Virus genome (UHGV): UHGV-1351772
Source of the DNA: a virus
Strand: one strand, 5' to 3'
Length of the DNA stretch: 64,000 nucleotides
Shown piece after piece: positions 1-11,853 of this stretch. The notes under the pieces are model-generated. The model searched no databases. It saw nothing but the letters and a program-made list of their open reading frames with translations, and had not been told where the DNA came from. The position numbers and the translations under genes are program-made. Position 1 is the first letter of the stretch; every line of letters starts with the position of its first letter.

Positions 1-3000
1 GTTAAGACAGGCGATAAAATGGTGTTAACCTTAACGAAAACCGATTTCGGTATCGATAAGATGGATAACACCATGCCGATCGCTAAACCGGTAACAAAAG
101 CGTTAGCGAATGTGCTGAAAAATAAAAGTGTGAAGGCGCACACGCATACCACTGCCGATTTGGATAATGTCCCGATTGGTAGCGCAACGGTGGACGGTAT
201 CTTACAACTGTGGGATGCGATTGATACCACGAATGATAAAGCCGTCACATCACGCCAAGGGTGGCTGTTCGCAAAAGAGATTAAGAGGGTCTCTGATAAA
301 CTGAATACCCTCTTGCCCGCATGGACAACGGCCGGGAGCAAATATACCAACAATTCGATATTGCCGATCTTGTCGATGGGTAATTACGAAGGTTATGGTA
401 AAAACATGGATGCGCTCCAGATGGTTATAGGGGTACAACAAGGTAAGCTTTATGCTTTAATTAGCTCTAAATCCGCCCTTCCGGGAACTGAGGGTATTTA
501 TTACGCTGTTGCTGGGTTAAAAAACGACAAAAGTCTCGGTGAAATTTACAAAACAACTTTCCGTTATAAGCCGAAAGGGTTAGAGACGAATTATCCGGGG
601 GTGGAATTAAAAGAAATTACCGTTACTGGTACCGAAGCATTTATAGCGAAGGGCAGCGACGATAATTATTATTTAGTTAAACTGAACGGTTCAATGGATT
701 ACAGCAAACATACCGATGTCAGGTTGGTAACTTTCTCAGAATTTGTTTCAGAAACAACATGGGAATTTGTGCCTAATATGTTCATGGATCGTGTGGTCAT
801 AGCCGATAACGGTGTCTATGTTTTGCGTACGATGCTAATGGCCGATCTGAAAAACAATACTCTGGTGGACTACATTAAGGATACCCCACAACCCATGTTC
901 CGTGTTGGGTTATTGCGGCTTAATAAAACCGATCGGTTTGAACAGGTTGATTTAAGGTCTACACGAAAAATCGGTAAGTGTGCCGATTTGGTTGAACCTG
1001 GCGCGTTCGATGTAGATAATCCGAATACGAAGCGCCTTGCCTACTTCACTGCGGAAGGCAAGGCGCTGTGGACAGTGAATTTACAATTAACTAGAGGGTC
1101 GTCAAGATGGATAACGCCCGTTGTTAAGGACGGTCACTTGTTAACCGTCGGCGTGTCTGGCGTTTGTCTTGGTTTTTCTTCAACGAAAGGTACCACGTTC
1201 GGGCCATGGAATGGTGCTTATCGTCTTGACCTATTAACCGGGGAGGTTGGGTTAGAGACAACTAACGTCTTCCCAATCAAAATCGATACTACAGGCTGTT
1301 ACTTAAAAGACGGAACAAAAATAGAGCTGAAATGGAAATGGGCTACTCGAAGTTCTGGCTATATGGCCGACAATAGAATCTGTGTCGGTGATATGGTTTA
1401 TTCTTGCTGCTGTTCGACAGAAAAACAACTCGCACCATCTCTCCATTACCAGAAACTCCCAGAAGGGGTTAGTTATCTGGACTATGTTAAGTTGAGTGTG
1501 GGGTATGAGGGGCAATCTACGTTTGAATATCGGATAAACCCTGTGGTGGGTTCGGTGTGGAAACCGTCTATGACCTTCCCATTGTTCTTCCCAGGAACAA
1601 ACAAAGTATGGCTTAAACATCAAAAAACGGCTTATTTCATTGAAGCCGAATATGATAAAAATACGACTTACGGTTATCCTGGATACGGTGGTTTTGGACC
1701 AACATCCCGCCGTGTTGAAAAAACAGCGAACGAATACGGCATATTGACAAATATACCGCTGGTTGTTACGCCAGACATACCGAAAGGTCTACTAGATGGG
1801 GCTTACTTTATCGGTGCTGAAAGTAAACCATGTAAAGTTGTTTACGGTACCACTACGGTGGCTAGTGATCGGTTGTCTATCGATGCGGCAGAATGGGCGA
1901 AGTTGACTAATATTGTTCAGTCCAGCCAGTTCTCTGGGGCTTCTAACGGCAACGCCTATGAGCGGATTAGCGTAGCTAAGACCAAAAAGAACAACTACAG
2001 TTTGTCCTTTTGGGTGCTTGGTCAAACGATGTCTGGTGGTCCGCTTTGTATCGCGATAGTGAGTCTTATCTATAAAGACACTGACGGGGTAAATAAGTTT
2101 GCTTTTTACTTCTTTCAGGTAAAACCGACTATAACCAACGGGGTCATAAGGTTCGTTAGTTCGGAAGCGAGAATGATGACGTTCAGGGAAAAAGTGGCCA
2201 GTAACGCCATTAATCTCTCACCCACAGCTTTTAATGGTGAACTTAAACAACGCTACGGTCAAGTTTTCCTTTATTCGCAAGACGGACAAAAGTTCAGATT
2301 CTCAATACATAACCTGGTTGGCGGGAATCTTGTAGGATCAGAGATTTCTTTTGCTTTTGGGATAAACTTGACTAAAAAAGGAGAATGGTTTACCGGCGAA
2401 ATTCATCGGGCGCGGGGCTATACGTATACGCTGAATAATACATCTGAAGTCTATATACCCGATCTCTCGGGCATCGCGCTATTGACTTGTAACTCGGAAG
2501 ATTTAAACGAGTTGTATCTCGGTGGCGAACAGTATAGAATCTCTGATTTGTTTAACAAAAAATATACTGTTATCGATAAGATTATTATTGGCGGCGTACA
2601 AACACAGAGCGGTTGGAATTTCTATCTGACGGAGGAAACCGAGTTAAGTTTTGGAAATAAAAGATATACCGTTCCAAGATGGTCCGTTGATTTAAGCGAT
2701 GAATTCCCGACTAATCACGCTAACCAGACATTCTACGTTTATGCTGAAGTGGTCGGTTCTACTGCCCAATACCGCATCGGTTTAGAGCAGTTAGCTGATA
2801 CCTCGTCGAGACTGTTTGTTGGGACAGTAACCACTGATTCGAACCGTATTACGGATATCAGTATCGATAAAGTAAAACGGTTAGGTCGTGTAAAAGAGCT
2901 GGAAAATCATGCCTCGGTTGTTGATCAGCACGATGTGGCGCAGGCGTTCGACAGGAAAACTGGTCCACTATTAACAGTGGTTAATAAACCCGTTAAAGCC

Positions 3001-3876
3001 ATTACAGCATCTGCGAGCAAGGGTGCTGGGTATGTCGATGGTCAGAAATGGAATACGTTGTCCGGGATTACAACACGTTCCAGGTTGCCGGTACAGGAAA
3101 CCTATTCAGGTTATAAAAGTATCAGCAGGGTGGCGTATGAGAACTGCGCTGACCAGTTCTGGCAGAAAGCGGTTGCTGCGAACGTTGCAGCGGCTACTGC
3201 TTCTGAGAACAAACAAGCAGCAACCGCGAACATGAAGTGGTTGGGTGCGTATACGAAACCGACTACCGGCGAGTATGCATATCTGGCATTGAGTCTGCGT
3301 GTTAAAGTACCTGGCGATCCTGGTACTACTAACCGTCGACTGAAAATCAGGCTTGCGGCCCCGACAGGTATAACTCAAGTTCGTTACGGGCTAAATCAGT
3401 CTGGTGGTACGATGACTGAACAGACAGTAACGCTAACTGCTAACAGTTACTTGGAAAAAGAACACGCGGGATTTAAGCCAGCTGAAGAAGTCCGCCTTCA
3501 TGCTACGTTTGTCATTCCAAAAAATGAATACGATAGCTACCGGACCAAATTTGGTGCTGTTCAGCTGATTGACGTTGAGACGAACACTGTCATTAAACAG
3601 ACAGATATCGACACACCGTTTATCGTGTACACCGCCACGGAGTTAGCGGCACAATCTGGTTTGGTGTATAAAGCGGTTAAGGGTCAGTTCCATCAACTCC
3701 CGGCTCAACCTGTCGTCATTGTAACCGATGGACAGACAGGGACTACGCCACCGGTGAAAACCTCGTTTGCTGACGGGACATTAACGGTCTACGTGGCAAC
3801 CACGTACGACGCGGTTAACCCAGCACAAACCCGCGATATCGATAAGCTCCAGTTCAATCTTATGTTTACATCTTAA
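1..3876 (+). CDS. large virion fibre/structural protein, 5' end probably outside the window
   Basis: Frame is open from nt 1 (no stop before the ATG at 19); >1285 aa; lies directly upstream of a coiled-coil fibre gene; no catalytic motif recognised. Confidence 0.5.
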   Translation, partial: VKTGDKMVLTLTKTDFGIDKMDNTMPIAKPVTKALANVLKNKSVKAHTHTTADLDNVPIGSATVDGILQLWDAIDTTNDKAVTSRQGWLFAKEIKRVSDKLNTLLPAWTTAGSKYTNNSILPILSMGNYEGYGKNMDALQMVIGVQQGKLYALISSKSALPGTEGIYYAVAGLKNDKSLGEIYKTTFRYKPKGLETNYPGVELKEITVTGTEAFIAKGSDDNYYLVKLNGSMDYSKHTDVRLVTFSEFVSETTWEFVPNMFMDRVVIADNGVYVLRTMLMADLKNNTLVDYIKDTPQPMFRVGLLRLNKTDRFEQVDLRSTRKIGKCADLVEPGAFDVDNPNTKRLAYFTAEGKALWTVNLQLTRGSSRWITPVVKDGHLLTVGVSGVCLGFSSTKGTTFGPWNGAYRLDLLTGEVGLETTNVFPIKIDTTGCYLKDGTKIELKWKWATRSSGYMADNRICVGDMVYSCCCSTEKQLAPSLHYQKLPEGVSYLDYVKLSVGYEGQSTFEYRINPVVGSVWKPSMTFPLFFPGTNKVWLKHQKTAYFIEAEYDKNTTYGYPGYGGFGPTSRRVEKTANEYGILTNIPLVVTPDIPKGLLDGAYFIGAESKPCKVVYGTTTVASDRLSIDAAEWAKLTNIVQSSQFSGASNGNAYERISVAKTKKNNYSLSFWVLGQTMSGGPLCIAIVSLIYKDTDGVNKFAFYFFQVKPTITNGVIRFVSSEARMMTFREKVASNAINLSPTAFNGELKQRYGQVFLYSQDGQKFRFSIHNLVGGNLVGSEISFAFGINLTKKGEWFTGEIHRARGYTYTLNNTSEVYIPDLSGIALLTCNSEDLNELYLGGEQYRISDLFNKKYTVIDKIIIGGVQTQSGWNFYLTEETELSFGNKRYTVPRWSVDLSDEFPTNHANQTFYVYAEVVGSTAQYRIGLEQLADTSSRLFVGTVTTDSNRITDISIDKVKRLGRVKELENHASVVDQHDVAQAFDRKTGPLLTVVNKPVKAITASASKGAGYVDGQKWNTLSGITTRSRLPVQETYSGYKSISRVAYENCADQFWQKAVAANVAAATASENKQAATANMKWLGAYTKPTTGEYAYLALSLRVKVPGDPGTTNRRLKIRLAAPTGITQVRYGLNQSGGTMTEQTVTLTANSYLEKEHAGFKPAEEVRLHATFVIPKNEYDSYRTKFGAVQLIDVETNTVIKQTDIDTPFIVYTATELAAQSGLVYKAVKGQFHQLPAQPVVIVTDGQTGTTPPVKTSFADGTLTVYVATTYDAVNPAQTRDIDKLQFNLMFTS

Positions 3877-3916
3877 CGCCACGGGACAAGGACGTCTCGG
3901 ATTAAGGAGAGTGGCC

Positions 3917-5116
3917 ATGGCCTCCATTGTATACCAATACCCTTTAGATTTAACGGGAAGCCTAACCTCTAACGCCGTGGAGCGTCAGATTACGTTAGGT
4001 ACAGGTAAAGTTAACCGTGCGTTTGCTTTTCCTGACGGACCGTTTTATGCTGATACGTTCCGCTTGCGGGTTGCTAACCGACCCGATGCGACGTATGAGC
4101 GCGGAACGGACTACGAGTTGATTTTTGCACACCCGGCTTACGAGAAATTGACGAAGAACCGGGAAGTGGTAATGGCGGTTGTTGTAACGAACACCGCGAT
4201 TCCGACCGATATCACGGTATCAGCGCAAGTAGTCGGGGGCCCGCAGTCGGCAAACGTGCCCGCGATAGAACAGGCGATTGCCGAGCTGAATCTCGATAAT
4301 CGAACTGTTGGCTTTAAAGACTTGCGAAATGTTCCTGATACATTTCCTTCGGCACCAACGTATAAAGACGTCGGCGATATTTACGGCTTCGAATACATTA
4401 TTACGGTGCTCGCTGGCATCAAAGATGCGATAACGGCGGGCGATGCTGTACAGCTTGAGAACATCAAAGCGATTCTCGAAAGCCTGAAAAACGATTTCCT
4501 GGACGCGCTGAACGCGCACATTAACGCCACGGGTAACGTCCACCATCTGGATATTCATCAGGTTAACGGGTTAACAGAAACGGAGATCCGTGCACTGATC
4601 CGTGATGTGCAGTCTGCTATCGATGCAACCATTACTGATATTAATGCGTTGAAGAAAGCAGACGAAGCGTTAGGAAAACGTATTGATGCTGTTGTCAAAT
4701 CTTTGGAAGCGTGGAACGACCAACTTAACATCGTTGCCCAAAACTACCAGAAGATGGCACTGGCAATGGCGAATCTAAACTCGCTAGTGTTACAGTTACA
4801 GAAAAATATCAACGATCTGAGCACCAAACTCAACCAAGCGATTCAGCGCATTGCTGCGTTAGAACAACGGGGTAATGAGTCCGATCAGAAAATTGATAAT
4901 CTGCAACAAAACCTGGATGCGCTTAAACAACAGGTTGCGAATAACACGAACGCAATCAGTCAGGCGAATCAGAACCTACAAAACCATATTGCGGCGGATA
5001 ACCCACACACAGGCTATCTCCACAAGAAATACGGTGGTGTGGTTCAGGCTCCGGTGCACGTTAACGCTAACTTGACGTCCCGTGATGACGTTCAGGCAGA
5101 AGCGGGTACGAGATAA
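3917..5116 (+). CDS. fibrous virion protein with a long C-terminal coiled coil (tail-fibre-like)
   Basis: AGGAGA RBS 6 nt before the ATG at 3917 (track start 3911 is GTG flush against the RBS); heptad-like Q/N/L-rich segment (NLQQNLDALKQQVANN...). Confidence 0.5.
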   Translation: MASIVYQYPLDLTGSLTSNAVERQITLGTGKVNRAFAFPDGPFYADTFRLRVANRPDATYERGTDYELIFAHPAYEKLTKNREVVMAVVVTNTAIPTDITVSAQVVGGPQSANVPAIEQAIAELNLDNRTVGFKDLRNVPDTFPSAPTYKDVGDIYGFEYIITVLAGIKDAITAGDAVQLENIKAILESLKNDFLDALNAHINATGNVHHLDIHQVNGLTETEIRALIRDVQSAIDATITDINALKKADEALGKRIDAVVKSLEAWNDQLNIVAQNYQKMALAMANLNSLVLQLQKNINDLSTKLNQAIQRIAALEQRGNESDQKIDNLQQNLDALKQQVANNTNAISQANQNLQNHIAADNPHTGYLHKKYGGVVQAPVHVNANLTSRDDVQAEAGTR

Positions 5117-5183
5117 CTTTATTACAGGAGGAACTATGCTTATGGGCGTAGTCCTCCATTCTTTTTTATTTTAAGGATACGTG

Positions 5184-5579
5184 ATGGCGATCAGTGTTAA
5201 AAATGTACGTGACCGAATCACCAACGTAGAGAACCAAATGGCAACTGGCCCACGTGTTGATCCGCAAGTTGCGTCGAAAGCACATAATGCCGCCGACACT
5301 TTTTCGGGTTGGACGCCAAGTCGGTTAGACTGCGGGGGGAGTTGCAGCTGGACGTGCTCAAACGGTTGTACGCATGGCTGTACGAGTTGTTCGGGCACCT
5401 GTACGTCAGTGTGTGTAGGTAGCTGCTCCTCTGCGTGCGGTAACCAGTGTACTGGATGTAGTTCAACATGTTCCGGTGGGTGTTCTGGTTGCAGTGGGAC
5501 CTGTGGGGGCGCTTGCTCGGGCCGTTGTTCTACGGGTTGTTCTGGTGCTTGCTCTGGTGGCTGTTCTGGCCCAACCTAA
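5184..5579 (+). CDS. Cys-rich precursor-like peptide 1 (leader plus about 80-aa Cys-periodic core)
   Basis: AAGGA RBS then ATG at 5184; about 50-aa Cys-free leader, then DCGGSCSWTCS followed by C-x3-C repeats of small residues (about 21 Cys). Confidence 0.6.
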   Translation: MAISVKNVRDRITNVENQMATGPRVDPQVASKAHNAADTFSGWTPSRLDCGGSCSWTCSNGCTHGCTSCSGTCTSVCVGSCSSACGNQCTGCSSTCSGGCSGCSGTCGGACSGRCSTGCSGACSGGCSGPT

Positions 5580-5589
5580 GAGGTGAAAA

Positions 5590-5988
5590 ATGGCAATTGG
5601 ATTACCTGCGCTACAAGCGCGGCTAAATAACATTGACAACACTGCATTGAAGAATACGGGTGCAGTACAAAACTATATTCGTGGGAAAGCGACGAACAAC
5701 GCAGACTTATTCGGTGGGCAAGCTCGCAACCACTATGACTGTGGTGGGAGCTGTAGCTGGACCTGTTCGAGCTGTTCTGGTGGTTGTACAGGGAACGCAT
5801 CAGGCGGCTGTGGTTCTTCCTGTTCTGCAAACTGTGTATCAGGTTGTAGTGCAGGCTGTAGTGGATGTTCGAATACCTGTTCTGGTGGGTGTTCAGGAAG
5901 CTGTACGGGGAGTTGTTCTAACTCGTGTGTAGGAAACTGTTCTGCAGGCTGCTCAGGTAGTTGTTCTGGTGGGTGTTCTGGGAGGTAA
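5590..5988 (+). CDS. Cys-rich precursor-like peptide 2 (paralog of peptide 1)
   Basis: AAGAGGTGA RBS; same architecture with conserved DCGGSCSWTCS junction and CSGx repeats. Confidence 0.6.
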   Translation: MAIGLPALQARLNNIDNTALKNTGAVQNYIRGKATNNADLFGGQARNHYDCGGSCSWTCSSCSGGCTGNASGGCGSSCSANCVSGCSAGCSGCSNTCSGGCSGSCTGSCSNSCVGNCSAGCSGSCSGGCSGR

Positions 5989-5990
5989 TT

Positions 5991-6197
5991 GTGATTAGCC
6001 TTAAGAACCTTCGTGATCGGTTAGTAACAGCGGAAGGGTATATTACGACCGCTAACGCAAACAACTATATTGCAAACCAGGGCACCGTGTCCTCAACCAA
6101 CAACCTTGCCGGTTTACCTTTAAGCCATTATAACTGTAACGGCGGATGTAGCTGGTCGTGCAGTGGTAGCTGTAGTAAAGGTGCGGGGGGAAGGTAA
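5991..6197 (+). CDS. Cys-rich precursor-like peptide 3 (short paralog, GTG start)
   Basis: GGAGGT RBS overlapping the stop of peptide 2; in-frame GTG at 5991; leader ISLKNLRDRL resembles peptide 1 leader ISVKNVRDRI; core NCNGGCSWSCSGSCS. Confidence 0.45.
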   Translation: MISLKNLRDRLVTAEGYITTANANNYIANQGTVSSTNNLAGLPLSHYNCNGGCSWSCSGSCSKGAGGR

Positions 6198-6346
6198 CTA
6201 AGCCCTCCAGTGGTAGTATGTCTATTACGCAATACCCGAGTTAATCGTACGGGTTTACTGCTGAGTTTCAAGTCACCGGTAGGCAATGGCGCGGTGGGTT
6301 CTATACCCTGAATGTCCGTTTGACCGTGAAATAAATGGAGCAATCA

Positions 6347-7234
6347 ATGAAGAATGATTTACATTTAGCGTACAAAACAATTTTCAATCATCCACTTCAC
6401 ATTTCTTCCCCTGATTCCGTACGTGCACACTTAGCAGATGAAGTTCGTCTGCTGACTCAGTTGCCGGGCGAATGGCCTAAAGTGCGCGGACGTTTCTTTA
6501 CCGATCGTAAAAACTATCGTGTAGAAAATACGTTTAAGATTCGTGATCTGACGGCAGAAAGTGTAGTGGTCTTTACCGGTGACTCCGAGTTGCGTGGTAA
6601 ACTGGTTGCGGGTAAATATTTCTTTAGTGACGGGATTTTGAATAACTCCGTAGATATGGAATTGTTCTTTACCCCATTTGAAGAAATGGGCGCAAAACCG
6701 GTTGCCCGTCGTTGGTGGTCACCGGATTACTTAGGCTCGTTCCCGTATTTCTTTACCCTGGTAACACCAGAAACGAAGAACTATTTCGATACGGAATCGT
6801 ATATCGAAATTGAAGGGTACGAAGCGTTAGGGATTAATTGCTTAGCGGATTTAATGGCGTATAGCTATAAGTTCGTGTGGGATCGTGAACGTTCCGTGTG
6901 GGTTGCCCTGACGGATGAACACGAAATCACAAAACGCATCCGTAAGCCTTGGATGCAGCATTTGATTCAAACACGTATTGGCGAGCATCCGTCAACAGAA
7001 GCGGATCTGGCAAAACTCGTTAGTTTCTTAATGACGAAAGTCACGTTAACTGACGAAGAGAAAGCAGCAGTGTCGGCGGTGTTGGACCGTAACGTAACGT
7101 TAGCGGATTTAGAACGTTTAAATGTCCGTTATAAAGACCTTAACCGTATTTTGGAAGCGTATAACTCTCCATTTTTGTTAACCCCTGGTGCTAACGTAGA
7201 CGACGATCCTTTGTTCGCCATTGATTATATTTAA
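6347..7234 (+). CDS. hypothetical protein, member of the Cys-peptide/radical-SAM operon
   Basis: GGAG RBS before the ATG at 6347 (track start 6335); co-oriented between precursors and rSAM genes; no motif recognised. Confidence 0.55.
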   Translation: MKNDLHLAYKTIFNHPLHISSPDSVRAHLADEVRLLTQLPGEWPKVRGRFFTDRKNYRVENTFKIRDLTAESVVVFTGDSELRGKLVAGKYFFSDGILNNSVDMELFFTPFEEMGAKPVARRWWSPDYLGSFPYFFTLVTPETKNYFDTESYIEIEGYEALGINCLADLMAYSYKFVWDRERSVWVALTDEHEITKRIRKPWMQHLIQTRIGEHPSTEADLAKLVSFLMTKVTLTDEEKAAVSAVLDRNVTLADLERLNVRYKDLNRILEAYNSPFLLTPGANVDDDPLFAIDYI

Positions 7235-7255
7235 AAACGACCGGAGTCACCTGCA

Positions 7256-8179
7256 ATGACAACCAATGCAGAACCAAGGTTATCGAATCGTTTATACGAT
7301 AAACCCACCGTATTGTCCGTAGTCGCTACGTCCAAGTGTAACCTGGACTGTAGCTTCTGCGGTGGAGCCTATTACATGAATCGTGAAGATTCTCCGCGAG
7401 AGTTTCAACGTGAGCGAATTTTGGAAGCGCTGGAAGCTAATCCAACCATTACCGAAATTCAGTGGACGGGTGGTGAGCCATTACTGGCAACCCGTAAAAT
7501 TGAGGCGTTTGTTGACGAATTAAAAGTGATTCGTCCAGAACTCAAACACCAGTTGTATACCAATGGCTTAAAGATGCGTAAATCGCATCTCCCGTTGCTA
7601 AAACAGTTTGACAATGTCTACGTTAGCATCGATGGGTTTAAGTCGTCTGAGCGCCCGTTTATGCGCTTTATTGACGAAGGCTGTTACGAAGCACTGGAAA
7701 CGATCTACGAGCTGGATAATGTCCAGACTTGGGGTGTCCTGACACGGGACCGTTTAGGGGATAAACGCTGGCACGAAGATATTATTCAGCTGCACAGCGC
7801 GATTTACCATTACGGTTTCCGTGCAATGACGTTACTCTTAGATGCGAAAATGCCAAAACCTTTATCGCCCGACCACGTCATGAACTTTATTTACGGCTAC
7901 TATCAGGTTCAGGACAACATTGAACGACTGAATGTAGTAAATGGTCGTGAATGCGGCTTTACAGTAAGTAAAGTGTTTGAAGAAGGGTGTAACGTTTGCA
8001 GCGAAAGTCTTTGGATTAATGCAGACGGTGGTGAGCACCAACTCCAGAATGCACCTAACGTTCTGGAATCGGGGTGTAACCAACTGGCCTTCTCTATCGG
8101 TGTAGAAGCGTACGAATATATTCGTCGCGTAGTGATGGCAGGGCGTAATAGAGGGGCGGCAAATGAGTCAAGTAAATGA
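7256..8179 (+). CDS. radical SAM enzyme (putative peptide maturase)
   Basis: C-x3-C-x2-C (CNLDCSFC) near the N-terminus, GGEPLL SAM-binding motif, extra C-terminal Cys (CGF...C-x2-C...C) suggesting a twitch/SPASM-like auxiliary cluster. Confidence 0.8.
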   Translation: MTTNAEPRLSNRLYDKPTVLSVVATSKCNLDCSFCGGAYYMNREDSPREFQRERILEALEANPTITEIQWTGGEPLLATRKIEAFVDELKVIRPELKHQLYTNGLKMRKSHLPLLKQFDNVYVSIDGFKSSERPFMRFIDEGCYEALETIYELDNVQTWGVLTRDRLGDKRWHEDIIQLHSAIYHYGFRAMTLLLDAKMPKPLSPDHVMNFIYGYYQVQDNIERLNVVNGRECGFTVSKVFEEGCNVCSESLWINADGGEHQLQNAPNVLESGCNQLAFSIGVEAYEYIRRVVMAGRNRGAANESSK

Positions 8180-9485
8180 ATTCCCTAAGCAGTTAACGTA
8201 TCAGATCGTAACCAACCTTTCGTGTAACCTGGACTGCGAATATTGTTACGAACGTAAGTACCCACGTAACAACAAAGCAGCGGATATTGTTGATTTCTTG
8301 CACGCCTGTTTTGAACGTGATAAAAACGAACCGAATGTTGAAGTTATTATCGACATTATCGGTGGTGAACCGTTCATGCAGCCTAAACTGCTGCTGGCTG
8401 CGTTCGAAACCGCTGAGCAGTTGTGCAAAGAACACAACCGTCCGTTTATGTTTAGTATCTCCACGAACGGGACCTTGTTAGATCGTCCGTTGAACCGTGA
8501 GATTGTAGAACGATGGAAAGACAAACTTTCGGTTGGGGTTTCGATTGACGGCTTACCGGAATCCCATGACCGTTATCGTATCTTCACAACGACACGCCAG
8601 GGTTCTTACGAAGCCGCTGTACGTGGCTATAACTACTTAAAAGAGGTTGGCATTGCAGAACTCGGCGTAAAGGCGACCTTTACGTTAGAAACGCTTCCGT
8701 TCTATGCTGCGGGGATGAAGTCATTAATTGACATTACTGGCGGTGGGACAATTTCTGGAAACGTAACTTTCGAAGACGTTATGCCACGTAGCATGGCGAC
8801 GTCAATCGCTTTACAGATGATGGATGTGATAGATTATTGGGTTGAGAAAGGATTACACACCAACCCACGTAATATCTTATCGCACATCATTCCAGAAGGG
8901 TTGGATTTCGATACGATTTGGGAACCGAACTGGCGTGACCAGTTACTGTATAATGACACCGTACGGTTGAACCCAGAACGTTTACGTCCGTTCTGTGGGA
9001 CGTTAACGCACATGACGTGCTTAGGATTTGACCGTAAGATCTTTGGCTGTAACCGCTTTATGTCAACGGTAACGTCGCGTTCTGCGGTGTTTGAGTTGGT
9101 AGGTCGGGAATTCGTCAGTCTGGACAACGGTAAATTGTTAGAAGAGATTCAAACGCAATATACCAACTACCCAGAGACCTGTTTAGGTTGTCCGATGAAA
9201 CACGCTTGTGGTAGCTGCGCGGCGGCTTCTTACGAGAACGGGGAAGGAACGTTAGAAGACCGTAAAGCGTATCACGCTGAACGACGTCAGTGTGGCTGGA
9301 CGACAGCGAAACTGATGGTGGCGGAATACTGGAAACAGAAGATGGGTACGACGTCAGCAAAAGCGTTCCACGACACGAGTATGTGTTATTGTCCACGCTG
9401 TGTTCGTGAACGTGCCCAAAAGGAAAAATTATTAAGAGAAGCCAAAGATGAAACCAATTCTGATCAACAATATTACGAAGCGTAG
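8163..9485 (+). CDS. radical SAM enzyme with C-terminal SPASM-type domain (putative peptide maturase)
   Basis: CNLDCEYC (C-x3-C-x2-C), GGEPF motif, C-terminal CLGCPMKHACGSC (C-x2-C-x5-C-x2-C) plus further Cys; start overlaps the stop of the preceding rSAM gene. Confidence 0.85.
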   Translation: MSQVNEFPKQLTYQIVTNLSCNLDCEYCYERKYPRNNKAADIVDFLHACFERDKNEPNVEVIIDIIGGEPFMQPKLLLAAFETAEQLCKEHNRPFMFSISTNGTLLDRPLNREIVERWKDKLSVGVSIDGLPESHDRYRIFTTTRQGSYEAAVRGYNYLKEVGIAELGVKATFTLETLPFYAAGMKSLIDITGGGTISGNVTFEDVMPRSMATSIALQMMDVIDYWVEKGLHTNPRNILSHIIPEGLDFDTIWEPNWRDQLLYNDTVRLNPERLRPFCGTLTHMTCLGFDRKIFGCNRFMSTVTSRSAVFELVGREFVSLDNGKLLEEIQTQYTNYPETCLGCPMKHACGSCAAASYENGEGTLEDRKAYHAERRQCGWTTAKLMVAEYWKQKMGTTSAKAFHDTSMCYCPRCVRERAQKEKLLREAKDETNSDQQYYEA

Positions 9486-10020
9486 AATTCGACTTCTGGA
9501 TAAGTTTCTGGAAAACAGTAAGCTATTCGGTTGCTATGTGGTGATTAACGGTGAAGATTTTACCGATGACGTAAAACGCTTGCTGATTCGTCACGGTGTG
9601 ACTGTAATCATCCCAATGTACTGCACCGAACTTACTGACCTGTCGGTCGCGGAAATTGAAAAACGTAACCCAGGGTTTGAAGAACGGGTATTGGATTTCC
9701 CACGTCACAAAATTGCGTTTCTACGCCGCTCTTTAAGCGAACCCAGCGCAGAATCTATCACTGTGTTGGCATTGTCCTTCCCCGGCATTACTATCTTCGC
9801 AACACGTAACCCGAACTCACCGATTGATGGGTTTTACGATGAGCGAGAGAAATTTAATACCGTGATTTTTCCTGAGCTAACGCCAGAAGAATGCCAGGGT
9901 ATCCGTATCGATTGGGAATCGGATTTCGACACAAGATTCCGTCATATCGATTTTGAACTGTTAATCGAATTAGGGTTGATTAAAGGAGACGATGAATGTC
10001 TGCTACTGGTGAAGGCTTAA
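9448..10020 (+). CDS. hypothetical protein (operon member)
   Basis: Long ORF whose start overlaps the rSAM-SPASM gene end; no motif recognised. Confidence 0.5.
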   Translation: MKPILINNITKRRIRLLDKFLENSKLFGCYVVINGEDFTDDVKRLLIRHGVTVIIPMYCTELTDLSVAEIEKRNPGFEERVLDFPRHKIAFLRRSLSEPSAESITVLALSFPGITIFATRNPNSPIDGFYDEREKFNTVIFPELTPEECQGIRIDWESDFDTRFRHIDFELLIELGLIKGDDECLLLVKA

Positions 10021-10667
10021 CGAAAGAAGAAATCCGTCGTCGTTATTTTGCGCACGATTTACCGATTGACCGTCATGGTAACTACATGGAGAAAATCGGT
10101 AGCGAAGATCACGGCCGTACAGGGTTTTGTGCGTTACTGCACTATAAGTTGATTGATGGGATGTCTGATCGCGAAGCATTGGAACAAATGCGTAACTACG
10201 ACATGTCTGAAATCGAAGCACGGTTTACGCTACAGAAAGCGAAAGACTTTGTTAACGACACGTTGGGGATTGACCTGGAAGAAATTCGTACAGGTTTACG
10301 TTCCACAGTGCGGTACATCTTTACCGATGTTCAGAAAATTCTAAGCGCTTTGGAATTCCGTTATCAGGATGCACGCTATGCTGAGATTCAGGTAGGTGAT
10401 TTCACTTTCCAGGCAGATGAGAAGTCACAGGTAGCACTGAGTCGTTATATCCAGTCAGAAACTGCGCCAGCGTATTGGTTAACGGCTAACAACACCCGTA
10501 TCGAACCGTTTACGTTAGAACAGTGCAAGACGTTGCTGGCAGCAATCGTTGAGCGCGATCAAAGACTACACCACGCAATGTCTGAGCAGAAAAGAGAAGT
10601 CAGAGCTTGGGCTGAAGCACGTGATTACGATTCAATTAAAGCGTTTGCGTTAGAGCAAGGGCTGTAA
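9996..10667 (+). CDS. hypothetical protein (operon member)
   Basis: AAAGGAG RBS 7 nt upstream; last gene before a bidirectional terminator. Confidence 0.55.
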   Translation: MSATGEGLTKEEIRRRYFAHDLPIDRHGNYMEKIGSEDHGRTGFCALLHYKLIDGMSDREALEQMRNYDMSEIEARFTLQKAKDFVNDTLGIDLEEIRTGLRSTVRYIFTDVQKILSALEFRYQDARYAEIQVGDFTFQADEKSQVALSRYIQSETAPAYWLTANNTRIEPFTLEQCKTLLAAIVERDQRLHHAMSEQKREVRAWAEARDYDSIKAFALEQGL

Positions 10668-10688
10668 TCGACAGCGAAAAAAAATAGT

Positions 10689-10725
10689 ATACCTACCTCC
10701 TATTACGGGAGGTAGGTATTTTTTC
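10689..10725. terminator. bidirectional rho-independent terminator between convergent genes
   Basis: Perfect 11-bp stem TACCTACCTCC / GGAGGTAGGTA flanked by an A-run upstream and a T-run downstream. Confidence 0.7.
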
Positions 10726-11256
10726 TTAGGACGTAAAACCGTCCAGCTCACCGTTGGTGGTGGCCAGGTCAATACGATTATCAACAACTTTCGGCGTAAT
10801 TACGAAAGTTGCCATTACACCCGGTTTATATCGGAGGTTCTTTTCAGTAACGGTACACGTTACCGTACGCAGAGTGACGTTATCATGTTCGTCTTTCTGG
10901 TCTTCGGTGTTGTACACAACGTCGCCTGGTGCGATAGCATCGTTCGGTTTAACTTTATTGATGTAATATTGTAACCAAGCGCGCAGTTCATTTTCTTGAA
11001 CCCAGCGAGACAGATCGTCAGTTAGTTCAATACGGCCTACAACACCCGGTTCCAGACGATCGTAATGCAGTTCGATTGCGCCTTTGAAATTCTCAGAACC
11101 CGGTAGTGCAGTCATGGTAACTTTGGTATTCTTACCTTCGCCTTCCAGCGCAGTAGGGAGACCAAAGGACACTTCTTTATCAGTTACCTGATGTGGTAGC
11201 TCAGTGTTAGCAGCATTATAAAGCGCGACCAACATCATCTGGTTAGTAGCTGCCAT
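10726..11256 (-). CDS. hypothetical protein, small-protein paralog family (member 1 of 6)
   Basis: 176 aa; shares with 11323..11853 the pattern NTK(V/I)T(M/L)TA...(S/Q)NFKG...HY.RL and the C-terminal ELDGFT. Confidence 0.6.
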   Translation of the reverse strand: MAATNQMMLVALYNAANTELPHQVTDKEVSFGLPTALEGEGKNTKVTMTALPGSENFKGAIELHYDRLEPGVVGRIELTDDLSRWVQENELRAWLQYYINKVKPNDAIAPGDVVYNTEDQKDEHDNVTLRTVTCTVTEKNLRYKPGVMATFVITPKVVDNRIDLATTNGELDGFTS

Positions 11257-11322: not shown

Positions 11323-11853
11323 TTATTCTTTAGGAGACGGTGCGGTGAAGCCATCCAGTTCACCTTCCAAACCGCTCAGTGCTACTTTCTCAGGAGCCGG
11401 AGGAGTAACTTTATACGTCGCGACAGTACCAGGCAGGAACTTCAAGTGGCCAGCCACAACCGTTACCACGTAAATGGTTTTGCCTTCTTCTTCACGGGAA
11501 ATAGTTTGCAGGTCGTTTTCACCGAACTCGTCATCGGTGTACCCTTTCTCAGCCATGGCTGCGTTAACTTTCGCCAGGATCTTCGTTGGTGAATCGAAAT
11601 CGGTAGTAGGTGCAGTTACTTCAACTTCACCAACGATGTCGCAGGAAAGACGAGTATAGTGGAATTCTTTCTCGCCTTTGAAGTTCTGGCTTTCTGCCTT
11701 GGCGGTCAGAGTAATTTTAGTGTTGCGGCCAGCTTCTCCGGTGAACTCAGCGACAGCACTAAAATTAACATCATTTACAGTCAGCTTAGAAGCAGTTTGG
11801 TTGTTTTTAGCAATTACAATCTCGATAAGCTGCTGTTGAAAAGTTTTAGCCAT
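11323..11853 (-). CDS. hypothetical protein, small-protein paralog family (member 2 of 6)
   Basis: 176 aa tandem paralog of 10726..11256. Confidence 0.6.
   Translation of the reverse strand: MAKTFQQQLIEIVIAKNNQTASKLTVNDVNFSAVAEFTGEAGRNTKITLTAKAESQNFKGEKEFHYTRLSCDIVGEVEVTAPTTDFDSPTKILAKVNAAMAEKGYTDDEFGENDLQTISREEEGKTIYVVTVVAGHLKFLPGTVATYKVTPPAPEKVALSGLEGELDGFTAPSPKE

Follow-up and report, generated by a model that had tools for sequence, protein, structure and literature searches.

The window considered here is a stretch of 64,000 nucleotides of the virus genome UHGV-1351772. Its positions 5184-10667 carry a string of eight plus-strand genes, in which three genes for cysteine-repeat proteins (P1, P2 and P3) are followed by those of an accessory (helper) protein, of two radical S-adenosylmethionine (radical-SAM) enzymes, rSAM-A and rSAM-B, and of two further proteins. 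The products of P1-P3 are probably fibre elements of the virion, modified by the radical-SAM enzymes and retained there. A more specific reading is that in several unrelated phage lineages the enzyme pair and the helper turn the Cys tails into poly-thioether "ladder" rods built into the virion; we regard it as possible and put it forward tentatively. The comparison of genomes indicates that the module is real, conserved and widely distributed, and it is very likely functional. The genes of the module, the hairpin behind them and the two genes upstream are as follows.

5184-5579, + strand: P1, 131 amino acids (aa); Cys-free N-terminal part of 49 aa and an 82-aa C-x3 repeat tail with 21 Cys; junction motif NAADTFSGWTPSRLD-CGGSCSWTCS; matches phrog_6085 (E 1.6e-40)
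5590-5988, + strand: P2, 132-aa paralog; 50-aa N-terminal part with two predicted helices and an 82-aa tail with 20 Cys; junction motif NNADLFGGQARNHYD-CGGSCSWTCS
5991-6197, + strand: P3, 68-aa paralog with a GTG start; N-terminal part of the same kind as in P1 and P2 and a 20-aa tail with 4 Cys, which has the first knot only, YN-CNGGCSWSCSGSC, followed by KGAGGR; matches phrog_6085 (E 2.5e-24)
6347-7234, + strand: accessory (helper) protein, 295 aa; SPN3US gp165 family; orphan fold
7256-8179, + strand: rSAM-A, 307-aa radical-SAM enzyme; SPN3US gp164 family
8163-9485, + strand: rSAM-B, 440-aa radical-SAM/SPASM enzyme; SPN3US gp163 family
9448-10020, + strand: 190-aa protein with no assigned function; SPN3US gp162 family; phrog_7988
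9996-10667, + strand: DUF4376 protein, 223 aa; SPN3US gp161 family; PF14301 at 43.5 bits against a cutoff of 25
10689-10719, readable on both strands: terminator-like hairpin, 13-bp stem followed by the T run TTTTTTCTT
19-3876, + strand: gp168 homolog, C-terminal three quarters, cut by the window start; large tail-fibre/baseplate virion protein
3911-5116, + strand: gp167 homolog, 401-aa coiled-coil virion structural protein with no Cys; phrog_2163 "virion structural protein" (E 4e-103)

P1 and P2 contain 15-16% Cys, far more than chance would produce. Over the 106 open frames of the window with 100 aa or more, the median is 1.7%, and the highest value after P1 and P2 is 5.4%. These Cys, set among Gly, Ser and Thr, are almost wholly x3-spaced, and the repeat unit is C-[S/T]-G-[G/S/T]. 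Over 27 tails of the family, x3 accounts for 84% of the 422 Cys-Cys spacings and x2 for 14%. Asp and Glu do not occur in the window tails and make up about 0.9% each in the family tails. P2 scores as a CXXX-repeat target (20.4 bits against the Cys-rich repeat TIGR04114, cutoff 20), and P1 scores 14.4 bits, below the cutoff; on several homologs PF27846 (tSAM_targ_Cxxx_rpt) is found among the precomputed matches. An earlier note on this DNA had described three tandem genes, each with a Cys-free leader and a hyper-Cys core. The three genes and their Cys-free parts are indeed there, and the tails of P1 and P2 answer the description, but that of P3, with its 4 Cys, does not.

The three frames are coding, since the differences from five other phages pile up in third codon positions (27/31/76 for P2 compared with SPN3US) and P1 and P2 have kept all of their aligned Cys. 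In P1 this means 21 of 21 Cys wherever all 21 are aligned and 20 of the 20 aligned in Phobos; in P2, 20 of 20 in all five phages. P3 is 81-90% identical in Seoulvirus and Machinavirus, and its homologs in Derbicusvirus and Wellingtonvirus retain, of the motif, C-x3-C-S-W alone. A Shine-Dalgarno-like sequence is seen upstream of each of the three genes.

The most conserved element of these proteins is the junction between the two parts, N-x3-L/F-x-G-x5-Y-x-C-x3-C-S-W-T/S-C, with a Trp that is almost invariant in the first repeat. The junction motif N-A-D-x-L-x-G is absent from all other proteins of the window. The conservation suggests that the C-x3-C-S-W knot may be a recognition or nucleation site. 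An AlphaFold2 model of P2, made from an alignment of 20 sequences, places helices at residues 5-22 and 24-33 with a predicted local distance difference test score (pLDDT) of about 70, the overall pLDDT being 50.

The gene order, namely the big fibre gene, the gp167-like gene, P1, P2, P3, the helper, rSAM-A, rSAM-B, the 190-aa gene and the DUF4376 gene, is kept in Seoulvirus, Machinavirus, Wellingtonvirus and Derbicusvirus. In all jumbo-phage loci, the gene immediately upstream of the Cys-repeat genes is the gp167-like one. Further, a scan of IMG/VR with the rSAM-B alignment returned 25 loci, 24 of which (L015-L038) were scored systematically, and a Cys-repeat ORF (open reading frame) is directly upstream in 24 of 24. 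The tie between Cys-rich and radical-SAM genes, whose absence from homologous phages would have spoken against the earlier note, thus holds in these phages, and in unrelated ones as well. A scan of IMG/VR with a strict Cys-repeat DNA pattern found one contig, which was already known.

The search with P2 yielded proteins of about 200 aa, whose C-terminal halves share the junction motif and the repeat tail with P2. For three of the matches the contig was inspected: two are T7-like podoviruses and one is a 37-kb phage contig. In the T7-like podoviruses, the Cys-repeat gene comes right after the gene with the T7 tail-fibre N-terminal domain (PF03906) and a collagen-like paralog, and is directly followed by the radical-SAM gene or genes and a homolog of the helper. 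The arrangement of the latter varies: in L009 and L010 the helper precedes a single 668-aa protein, in which rSAM-A is fused to rSAM-B (the fusion is seen also in L045), and in L012 the set starts with a separate rSAM-A, followed by the helper homolog. The 37-kb contig (L011), from an unrelated phage, has all genes of the jumbo type, among them a P3-like gene and one homologous to the 190-aa ORF. The same core is found in distant IMG/VR loci and in phage-like regions of five contigs from bacterial assemblies (Desulfoluna, Thalassospiraceae, Synergistaceae and others). Hence the conserved core has four members, namely the helper, rSAM-A, rSAM-B and a fibre-type protein with Cys repeats.

In the distant loci and bacterial-assembly contigs, proteins of 247-568 aa terminate in the Cys tail; they contain collagen-like repeats, long coiled coils or HxH repeats. 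Counting the T7-like phages and L011 as well, the proteins that end in the repeat tail are of 206-568 aa, and the Cys-free part is replaced by about 120-450 aa of fibre-type sequence. The N-terminal parts of these longer relatives match the tail-fibre PHROGs 5073, 11011, 3904 and 4120, and the C-terminal parts match phrog_6085. In the window, the Cys-repeat genes lie inside the tail-fibre block, on the same strand as the gp168 and gp167 homologs and with no terminator between. The leader/core picture does not fit these proteins, because the Cys-free part is interchangeable with long fibre regions and one P3 homolog has its Cys knot in the interior of the chain. In all likelihood, the so-called leader stays on the protein as its fibre or anchor domain and is not cleaved off as a leader peptide would be.

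The P3 homolog just mentioned, P0075 (L013 3402-4064), is Seoulvirus-like; behind its knot comes an additional domain of about 150 aa that matches no family and could be a distal or receptor-binding domain. In L042 (4002-4241) and L043 (4003-4233), which are contigs of Thalassospiraceae metagenome-assembled genomes, the Cys repeat forms a stand-alone ORF of 76-79 aa; its N-terminus has 13 aa, it lacks C-S-W, and it is situated just after an ORF of 577-607 aa. It could be a part of a split fibre gene, a result of a frameshift or a true small peptide. Another atypical case is L039 (IMGVR_UViG_3300029288_007046), where a 187-aa fibre-like protein (5423-5986) has three HxH motifs and a C-x-C-x tail, CCECECTCTCTCECTCACTCTCECRC. 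It is directly followed by a distant radical-SAM gene, whose product is 27% identical to rSAM-B, and may represent a second kind of radical-SAM-modified fibre tail.

Both enzymes of the window belong to the radical-SAM superfamily, as the earlier note had stated: the PF04055 scores are 53 bits for rSAM-A and 57 bits for rSAM-B, with a cutoff of 29.5, and the motifs are present. These are C28-x3-C-x2-C and GGEP at position 72 in rSAM-A, and C21-x3-C-x2-C, GGEP at position 67 and C340-x2-C-x5-C-x2-C in rSAM-B. The two proteins are 25% identical over the first 150 residues. The Cys of CX3CX2C, the GGE and the T102-N103 pair within TNG/TNA are invariant across nine phage homologs of rSAM-A. The best PDB match of rSAM-A is SkfB, aligned from SkfB residue 111. 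Its C-terminal 107 aa have no NCBIfam match up to E 1, nor a match to a SPASM or twitch profile; the Cys of this part are not conserved beyond the jumbo phages, and rSAM-A does not qualify as a SPASM enzyme. A viperin-like antiviral role of rSAM-A was considered and rejected, the match being generic (39 bits against a cutoff of 180).

In L016 (2563-3483) and L031, two IMG/VR relatives of the window that are 93% identical to it at rSAM-B, an extra 307-aa paralog of rSAM-A is inserted between P1 and P2, making three radical-SAM genes in total. The rSAM-A copies may thus be specific to particular substrates.

By its profile matches, rSAM-B is a SPASM-domain radical-SAM enzyme. Residues 260-400 cover positions 1-86 of 93 of the SPASM model TIGR04085 with 27.3 bits, a thin margin over the cutoff of 27, and no Pfam SPASM match is found. 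The motif had been called canonical; the family assignment stands, but the last spacing is x2, while the canonical pattern is C-x2-C-x5-C-x3-C. Cys 21, 25 and 28 and the eight auxiliary Cys (278, 286, 296, 340, 343, 349, 352 and 377) are invariant in seven homologs.

The score of rSAM-B is 116.8 bits (E 1.2e-33) with the PapB family (NF047865, cutoff 340) and 114.7 bits with TIGR04115, the maturase of CXXX-repeat targets (cutoff 350, model positions 3-345 of 359). These two families are the top-scoring ones and the sole ones aligned over nearly the full length. With TIGR04115, the phage relatives of rSAM-B reach 135-178 bits and a bacterial control (L014) 388 bits. Among PDB entries, CteB (5WGG, E 5.8e-14) matches rSAM-B best. 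Other matches are the anaerobic sulfatase maturase TIGR03942 (3.6e-16; PDB 4K37) and the QhpD-type TIGR03906 (6.4e-17, and 2.5e-38 for the fused T7-like enzyme). The set of matches indicates that rSAM-B is likely a cross-link-forming maturase. From the strict linkage and the enzyme family, by which the pairing is well supported, we infer that the Cys tails are the substrates.

The radical-SAM cores begin at residues 20-28 in rSAM-B and rSAM-A. CteB has a domain of about 100 residues, the recognition element (RRE) of ribosomally made peptides with post-translational modifications (RiPPs), at the place where the rSAM-B core starts at residue 20. Since the alignment with rSAM-B starts at CteB residue 105, this domain has no counterpart here. 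No RRE or PqqD match is found by sequence in any ORF of the cluster, the 190-aa ORF having been checked by sequence only.

The accessory protein is related to the 238-290-aa protein of the other modules, with an hhalign probability of 99.7% (E 1e-25) and direct BLAST matches. Its fold has no match in PDB or among other known folds, and its role may be the handling or chaperoning of the substrate. The 190-aa protein has no Pfam match and only 12 homolog clusters. Its homolog in the unrelated contig L011 is 26% identical and occupies the same position, and the gene is missing from the T7-like modules; only modules of the jumbo-phage type carry it.

The mechanism that we propose is as follows. 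P1-P3 would be small fibre-type virion proteins, each with a short helical N-terminal anchor and the junction motif. They would be modified before assembly, in the reducing cytoplasm, where both radical-SAM enzymes would act on the tails with the help of the accessory protein. The latter would present the tail, thereby substituting for the missing RRE domain. rSAM-B, with three [4Fe-4S] clusters, would use the 5'-deoxyadenosyl radical chemistry to join a Cys sulfur to a carbon of a nearby residue, so that the repeat tail would become a row of small thioether rings. rSAM-A would introduce a second modification or prime the reaction at the C-x3-C-S-W knot. The N-terminal part would be kept, and the full-length product would be mounted on the tail or baseplate beside the gp167- and gp168-type proteins. 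The end product would be a covalently stiffened fibre element resistant to proteases and redox conditions.

The stretch from the gp167 homolog to the DUF4376 gene is equivalent to gp161-gp167 of SPN3US. In purified SPN3US virions gp160 and gp167-gp173 were detected, and gp161-gp166 were not (PMC5694885, Supplementary Table 1). The detected gp168 is a baseplate/tail-fibre candidate (PMC5694885). The absence of gp161-gp165 fits non-structural enzymes and helpers. A search of the SPN3US papers for gp161-gp166 found nothing.

The Cys-repeat genes are poorly represented in the annotation. In the SPN3US record (NC_027402/JN641803; L001 6950-7979), gp166 is an overlapping ORF in a wrong frame, and P1 and P3 are unannotated. 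The corrected ORFs of the three genes are the reverse complement of 143828-144220, 143413-143817 and 143191-143397 of NC_027402 (L001 6950-7342, 7353-7757 and 7773-7979). In the records of the Erwinia and Cronobacter phages pEa_SNUABM_29, Kwan, CR5 and Phobos (L002, L005, L006 and L007), ORFs of the opposite strand are annotated over the Cys-repeat genes. The Machina record has these genes annotated correctly. The gap, in which the Cys-repeat genes are missing, mis-framed or placed on the wrong strand, is systematic, and therefore proteomic and structural studies could not have seen their products.

Several points weigh against modified fibre elements with thioether rings. The scores of rSAM-B are far under the trusted cutoffs of PapB and TIGR04115, and therefore the chemistry of these families is not safely transferable. 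The acceptor residues of PapB, Asp and Glu, do not occur in the window tails and are scarce in the family, which excludes Cys-to-Asp links of the PapB type. The AlphaFold2 model of the P2 Cys tail is unusable (pLDDT 40-46). P1-P3 of the window match phrog_6085 alone, a family with unassigned function, the fibre-domain matches being confined to their relatives. The role of the accessory protein is a guess, as its fold matches nothing known. Finally, P1-P3 are unreported in the SPN3US virion proteomics; yet the true ORFs are not in the annotation JN641803, with gp166 in a wrong frame, and presumably were not in the database searched, so that the virion list says nothing about P1-P3. Moreover, the tails are almost without Lys and Arg, which, together with cross-linking, would hinder tryptic identification.

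The closest known arrangement is the bacterial CXXX-repeat system, which was defined by comparative genomics and comprises TIGR04114/TIGR04117 peptides (also PF27846), the TIGR04115 radical-SAM enzyme, the second maturase TIGR04119 and the small protein TIGR04116. To our knowledge, its chemistry is uncharacterised. Both systems have targets with Cys at every fourth residue, rich in Gly, Ser and Thr, and an adjoining radical-SAM/SPASM enzyme. However, no window ORF matches TIGR04119 or TIGR04116; instead, the phage module has a second full radical-SAM enzyme and an accessory protein of orphan fold, about 240-320 aa. The bacterial peptides have a leader of the twin-arginine translocation (Tat) type and tatA/tatC neighbours, whereas the phage versions have a fibre-type N-terminus and C-x3-C-S-W. 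The phage system thus appears to be related to the bacterial CXXX-repeat/radical-SAM system without being its member, since the family cutoffs are failed, the companions are lacking, and the module has its own second radical-SAM enzyme, helper and fibre context.

The control, a bacterial metagenome contig (L014 262-4072), passes the cutoffs of TIGR04115, TIGR04119 and TIGR04116. Its peptide has the best match to TIGR04117 (40.1 bits, under the cutoff of 50) and a Tat-type leader, SRRDFFKKAAK, and tatA and tatC are in the operon, an arrangement that points to the export of a product already modified or loaded with a cofactor. The radical-SAM gene of this contig is apparently split by frameshifts.

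PapB (freyrasin) and CteB (SCIFF; 5WGG) are the best-scoring characterised relatives of rSAM-B. Both are SPASM enzymes that form Cys-to-carbon thioether rings in repeated short motifs, Cys-X3-Asp repeats in the case of PapB. Their substrates are short secreted peptides, unlike the phage ones, which are fibre-type proteins of 68-570 aa and, in the window, have tails free of the acceptors Asp and Glu. QhpD, acting on the QhpC subunit of quinohemoprotein amine dehydrogenase, is a radical-SAM/SPASM enzyme that introduces thioether links in a small subunit staying in the complex. This provides a precedent for cross-linking of a retained structural polypeptide, although the TIGR03906 match of rSAM-B is to a partial domain only, the QhpD substrate has Cys-to-Asp/Glu links and a Cys-Trp quinone cofactor, and it is a periplasmic enzyme subunit and not a virion part. 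Finally, the HK97 capsid chain-mail is formed by self-catalysed isopeptide bonds, and T4 fibre tips with HxH motifs are stabilised by metal ions. The purpose, covalent or metal-based stiffening of an exposed virion part, would be the same; however, no dedicated enzyme is involved there, and here the radical-SAM pair and the helper are encoded beside the substrate.

The earlier note saw a cluster of the sactipeptide/ranthipeptide type, and this stands insofar as the best matches of rSAM-B are thioether maturases; the leader/core picture does not, and the RRE is missing. As a classical RiPP, the product would have its Cys-free leader cut off, and the cross-linked peptide would be an antibacterial, signalling or anti-defence effector, intracellular or released at lysis. 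The order of genes, tandem precursors and then radical-SAM/SPASM maturases, is that of such clusters, the enzymes match RiPP maturases best, P1-P3 are short, with 68-132 aa, and stand-alone peptides of 76-79 aa exist in L042 and L043. However, profile searches (Pfam, NCBIfam, PHROG) among the eight ORFs find no peptidase and no exporter or transporter, in agreement with the earlier note, and the cluster has no immunity gene either. Moreover, in most other lineages the supposed leader is a fibre-type region of about 120-450 aa matching tail-fibre families, one P3 homolog has a domain of folded size after the Cys motif, and the module is always within tail-fibre blocks, co-oriented and with no intervening terminator. 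A classical RiPP is therefore decidedly unlikely, and the fate of a virion component appears to fit the evidence much better than that of a released effector.

If the tails are structural and modified by the radical-SAM pair, the modification might still be other than a thioether: formylglycine, as made by anaerobic sulfatase-maturating enzymes, D-epimerisation, or carbon-carbon or Cys-Trp links at C-S-W. Such chemistry would agree with the matches of rSAM-B to TIGR03942/4K37 and, at similar partial scores, to many non-thioether SPASM maturases, with the scarcity of Asp and Glu acceptors and with the almost invariant Trp of the first repeat; the constant presence of two different radical-SAM enzymes suggests two reactions. 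Still, we consider it unlikely, as the top families aligned over nearly the full length are PapB, a thioether former, and the family with CXXX-repeat targets, the best PDB match, CteB, is a thioether former too, and a substrate with 25% Cys is a natural thioether donor. It is also conceivable that the tails are no radical-SAM substrates at all and bind metals or form disulfide networks, similar to metal-stabilised fibre tips, while the enzymes act elsewhere. Cys-rich repeats could bind metals, HxH repeats are combined with a Cys tail in L041 and L039, and the Tat-type leaders of the bacterial CXXX peptides beside tatA/tatC point to a route typical for cofactor-loaded proteins. But the linkage of Cys-repeat and radical-SAM genes is strict across unrelated phage lineages, one lineage has an extra rSAM-A copy between P1 and P2, and the nearest enzyme family is defined by its CXXX-repeat peptide targets, all of which makes this explanation very improbable. 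We retain the reading of P1-P3 as radical-SAM-modified fibre elements.

The earlier note knew of no described phage system of this kind, and full-text literature searches found none. They yielded no paper linking phage fibres, Cys repeats and radical-SAM enzymes, although few subscription journals were covered and the absence is no proof; the module is apparently undescribed. If the proposed reading is true, the tails would be the first case of a radical cross-link installed by an enzyme in a structural protein of a virus, and the whole CXXX-repeat/radical-SAM family would gain its first function. Maturation of virion proteins by dedicated radical enzymes would then be a new layer of phage assembly, present also in model phages such as SPN3US, whose genetics and structure are already being studied, and the tails would be a new genetically encoded, heavily cross-linked protein material. 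This would be relevant for phage host range and for the engineering of virion stability.

As for the arrangement of the genes in the window, all eight ORFs are confirmed on the plus strand, directly after the two virion-protein genes. Stops and starts overlap only between rSAM-A and rSAM-B, rSAM-B and the 190-aa gene, and the 190-aa and DUF4376 genes. The overlaps reported earlier are thus correct for these pairs but not elsewhere, and 149 nucleotides separate P3 from the accessory ORF. The latter had been given 296 aa; it is present, but encodes 295 aa from the ATG at 6347 (299 aa from 6335). One of the two ORFs at the end of the string, both previously described as unknown, carries DUF4376 (43.5 bits), and the description remains valid for the 190-aa ORF. 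The single terminator is confirmed: the hairpin at 10689-10719 closes the gene string, and the plus strand has no further terminator-like site in 3800-10689. The sigma-70 promoter scan is at the chance level. Shuffled sequence folds as well as the spacer between P3 and the accessory gene does (z = -0.25), and hence no attenuator is proposed there. The DUF4376 protein has weak matches to the tail-fibre and tail PHROGs 1807 and 2837 and may be a fibre-assembly helper.

The region has about 72% DNA identity to Salmonella phage SPN3US and its relatives, and the gp168 homolog of the window is 31% identical to residues 452-1727 of SPN3US gp168; on sequence grounds, the window phage is an SPN3US-like jumbo phage. 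The host is probably Salmonella, because a protein 99% identical to the 190-aa one is found in an assembly of Salmonella enterica serovar Kedougou and rSAM-B is 100% identical to that of IMGVR_UViG_3300029126_000001. In SPFM14 (L008, LR535912) and the group SPFM5/6/7/9/14/15, the region matches in short fragments only and the ORF lengths are shifted, which looks like an assembly or frameshift problem rather than biology. The SPFM14-type record (L008), with its rearranged and poorly matching region, was excluded from the comparison. Downstream of the hairpin, the window has two gp160 paralogs in tandem, at 10726-11256 and 11323-11853, both on the minus strand and 33% identical to each other. 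SPN3US has a single copy at this position; its gp160 is a head protein present in more than 300 copies per capsid.

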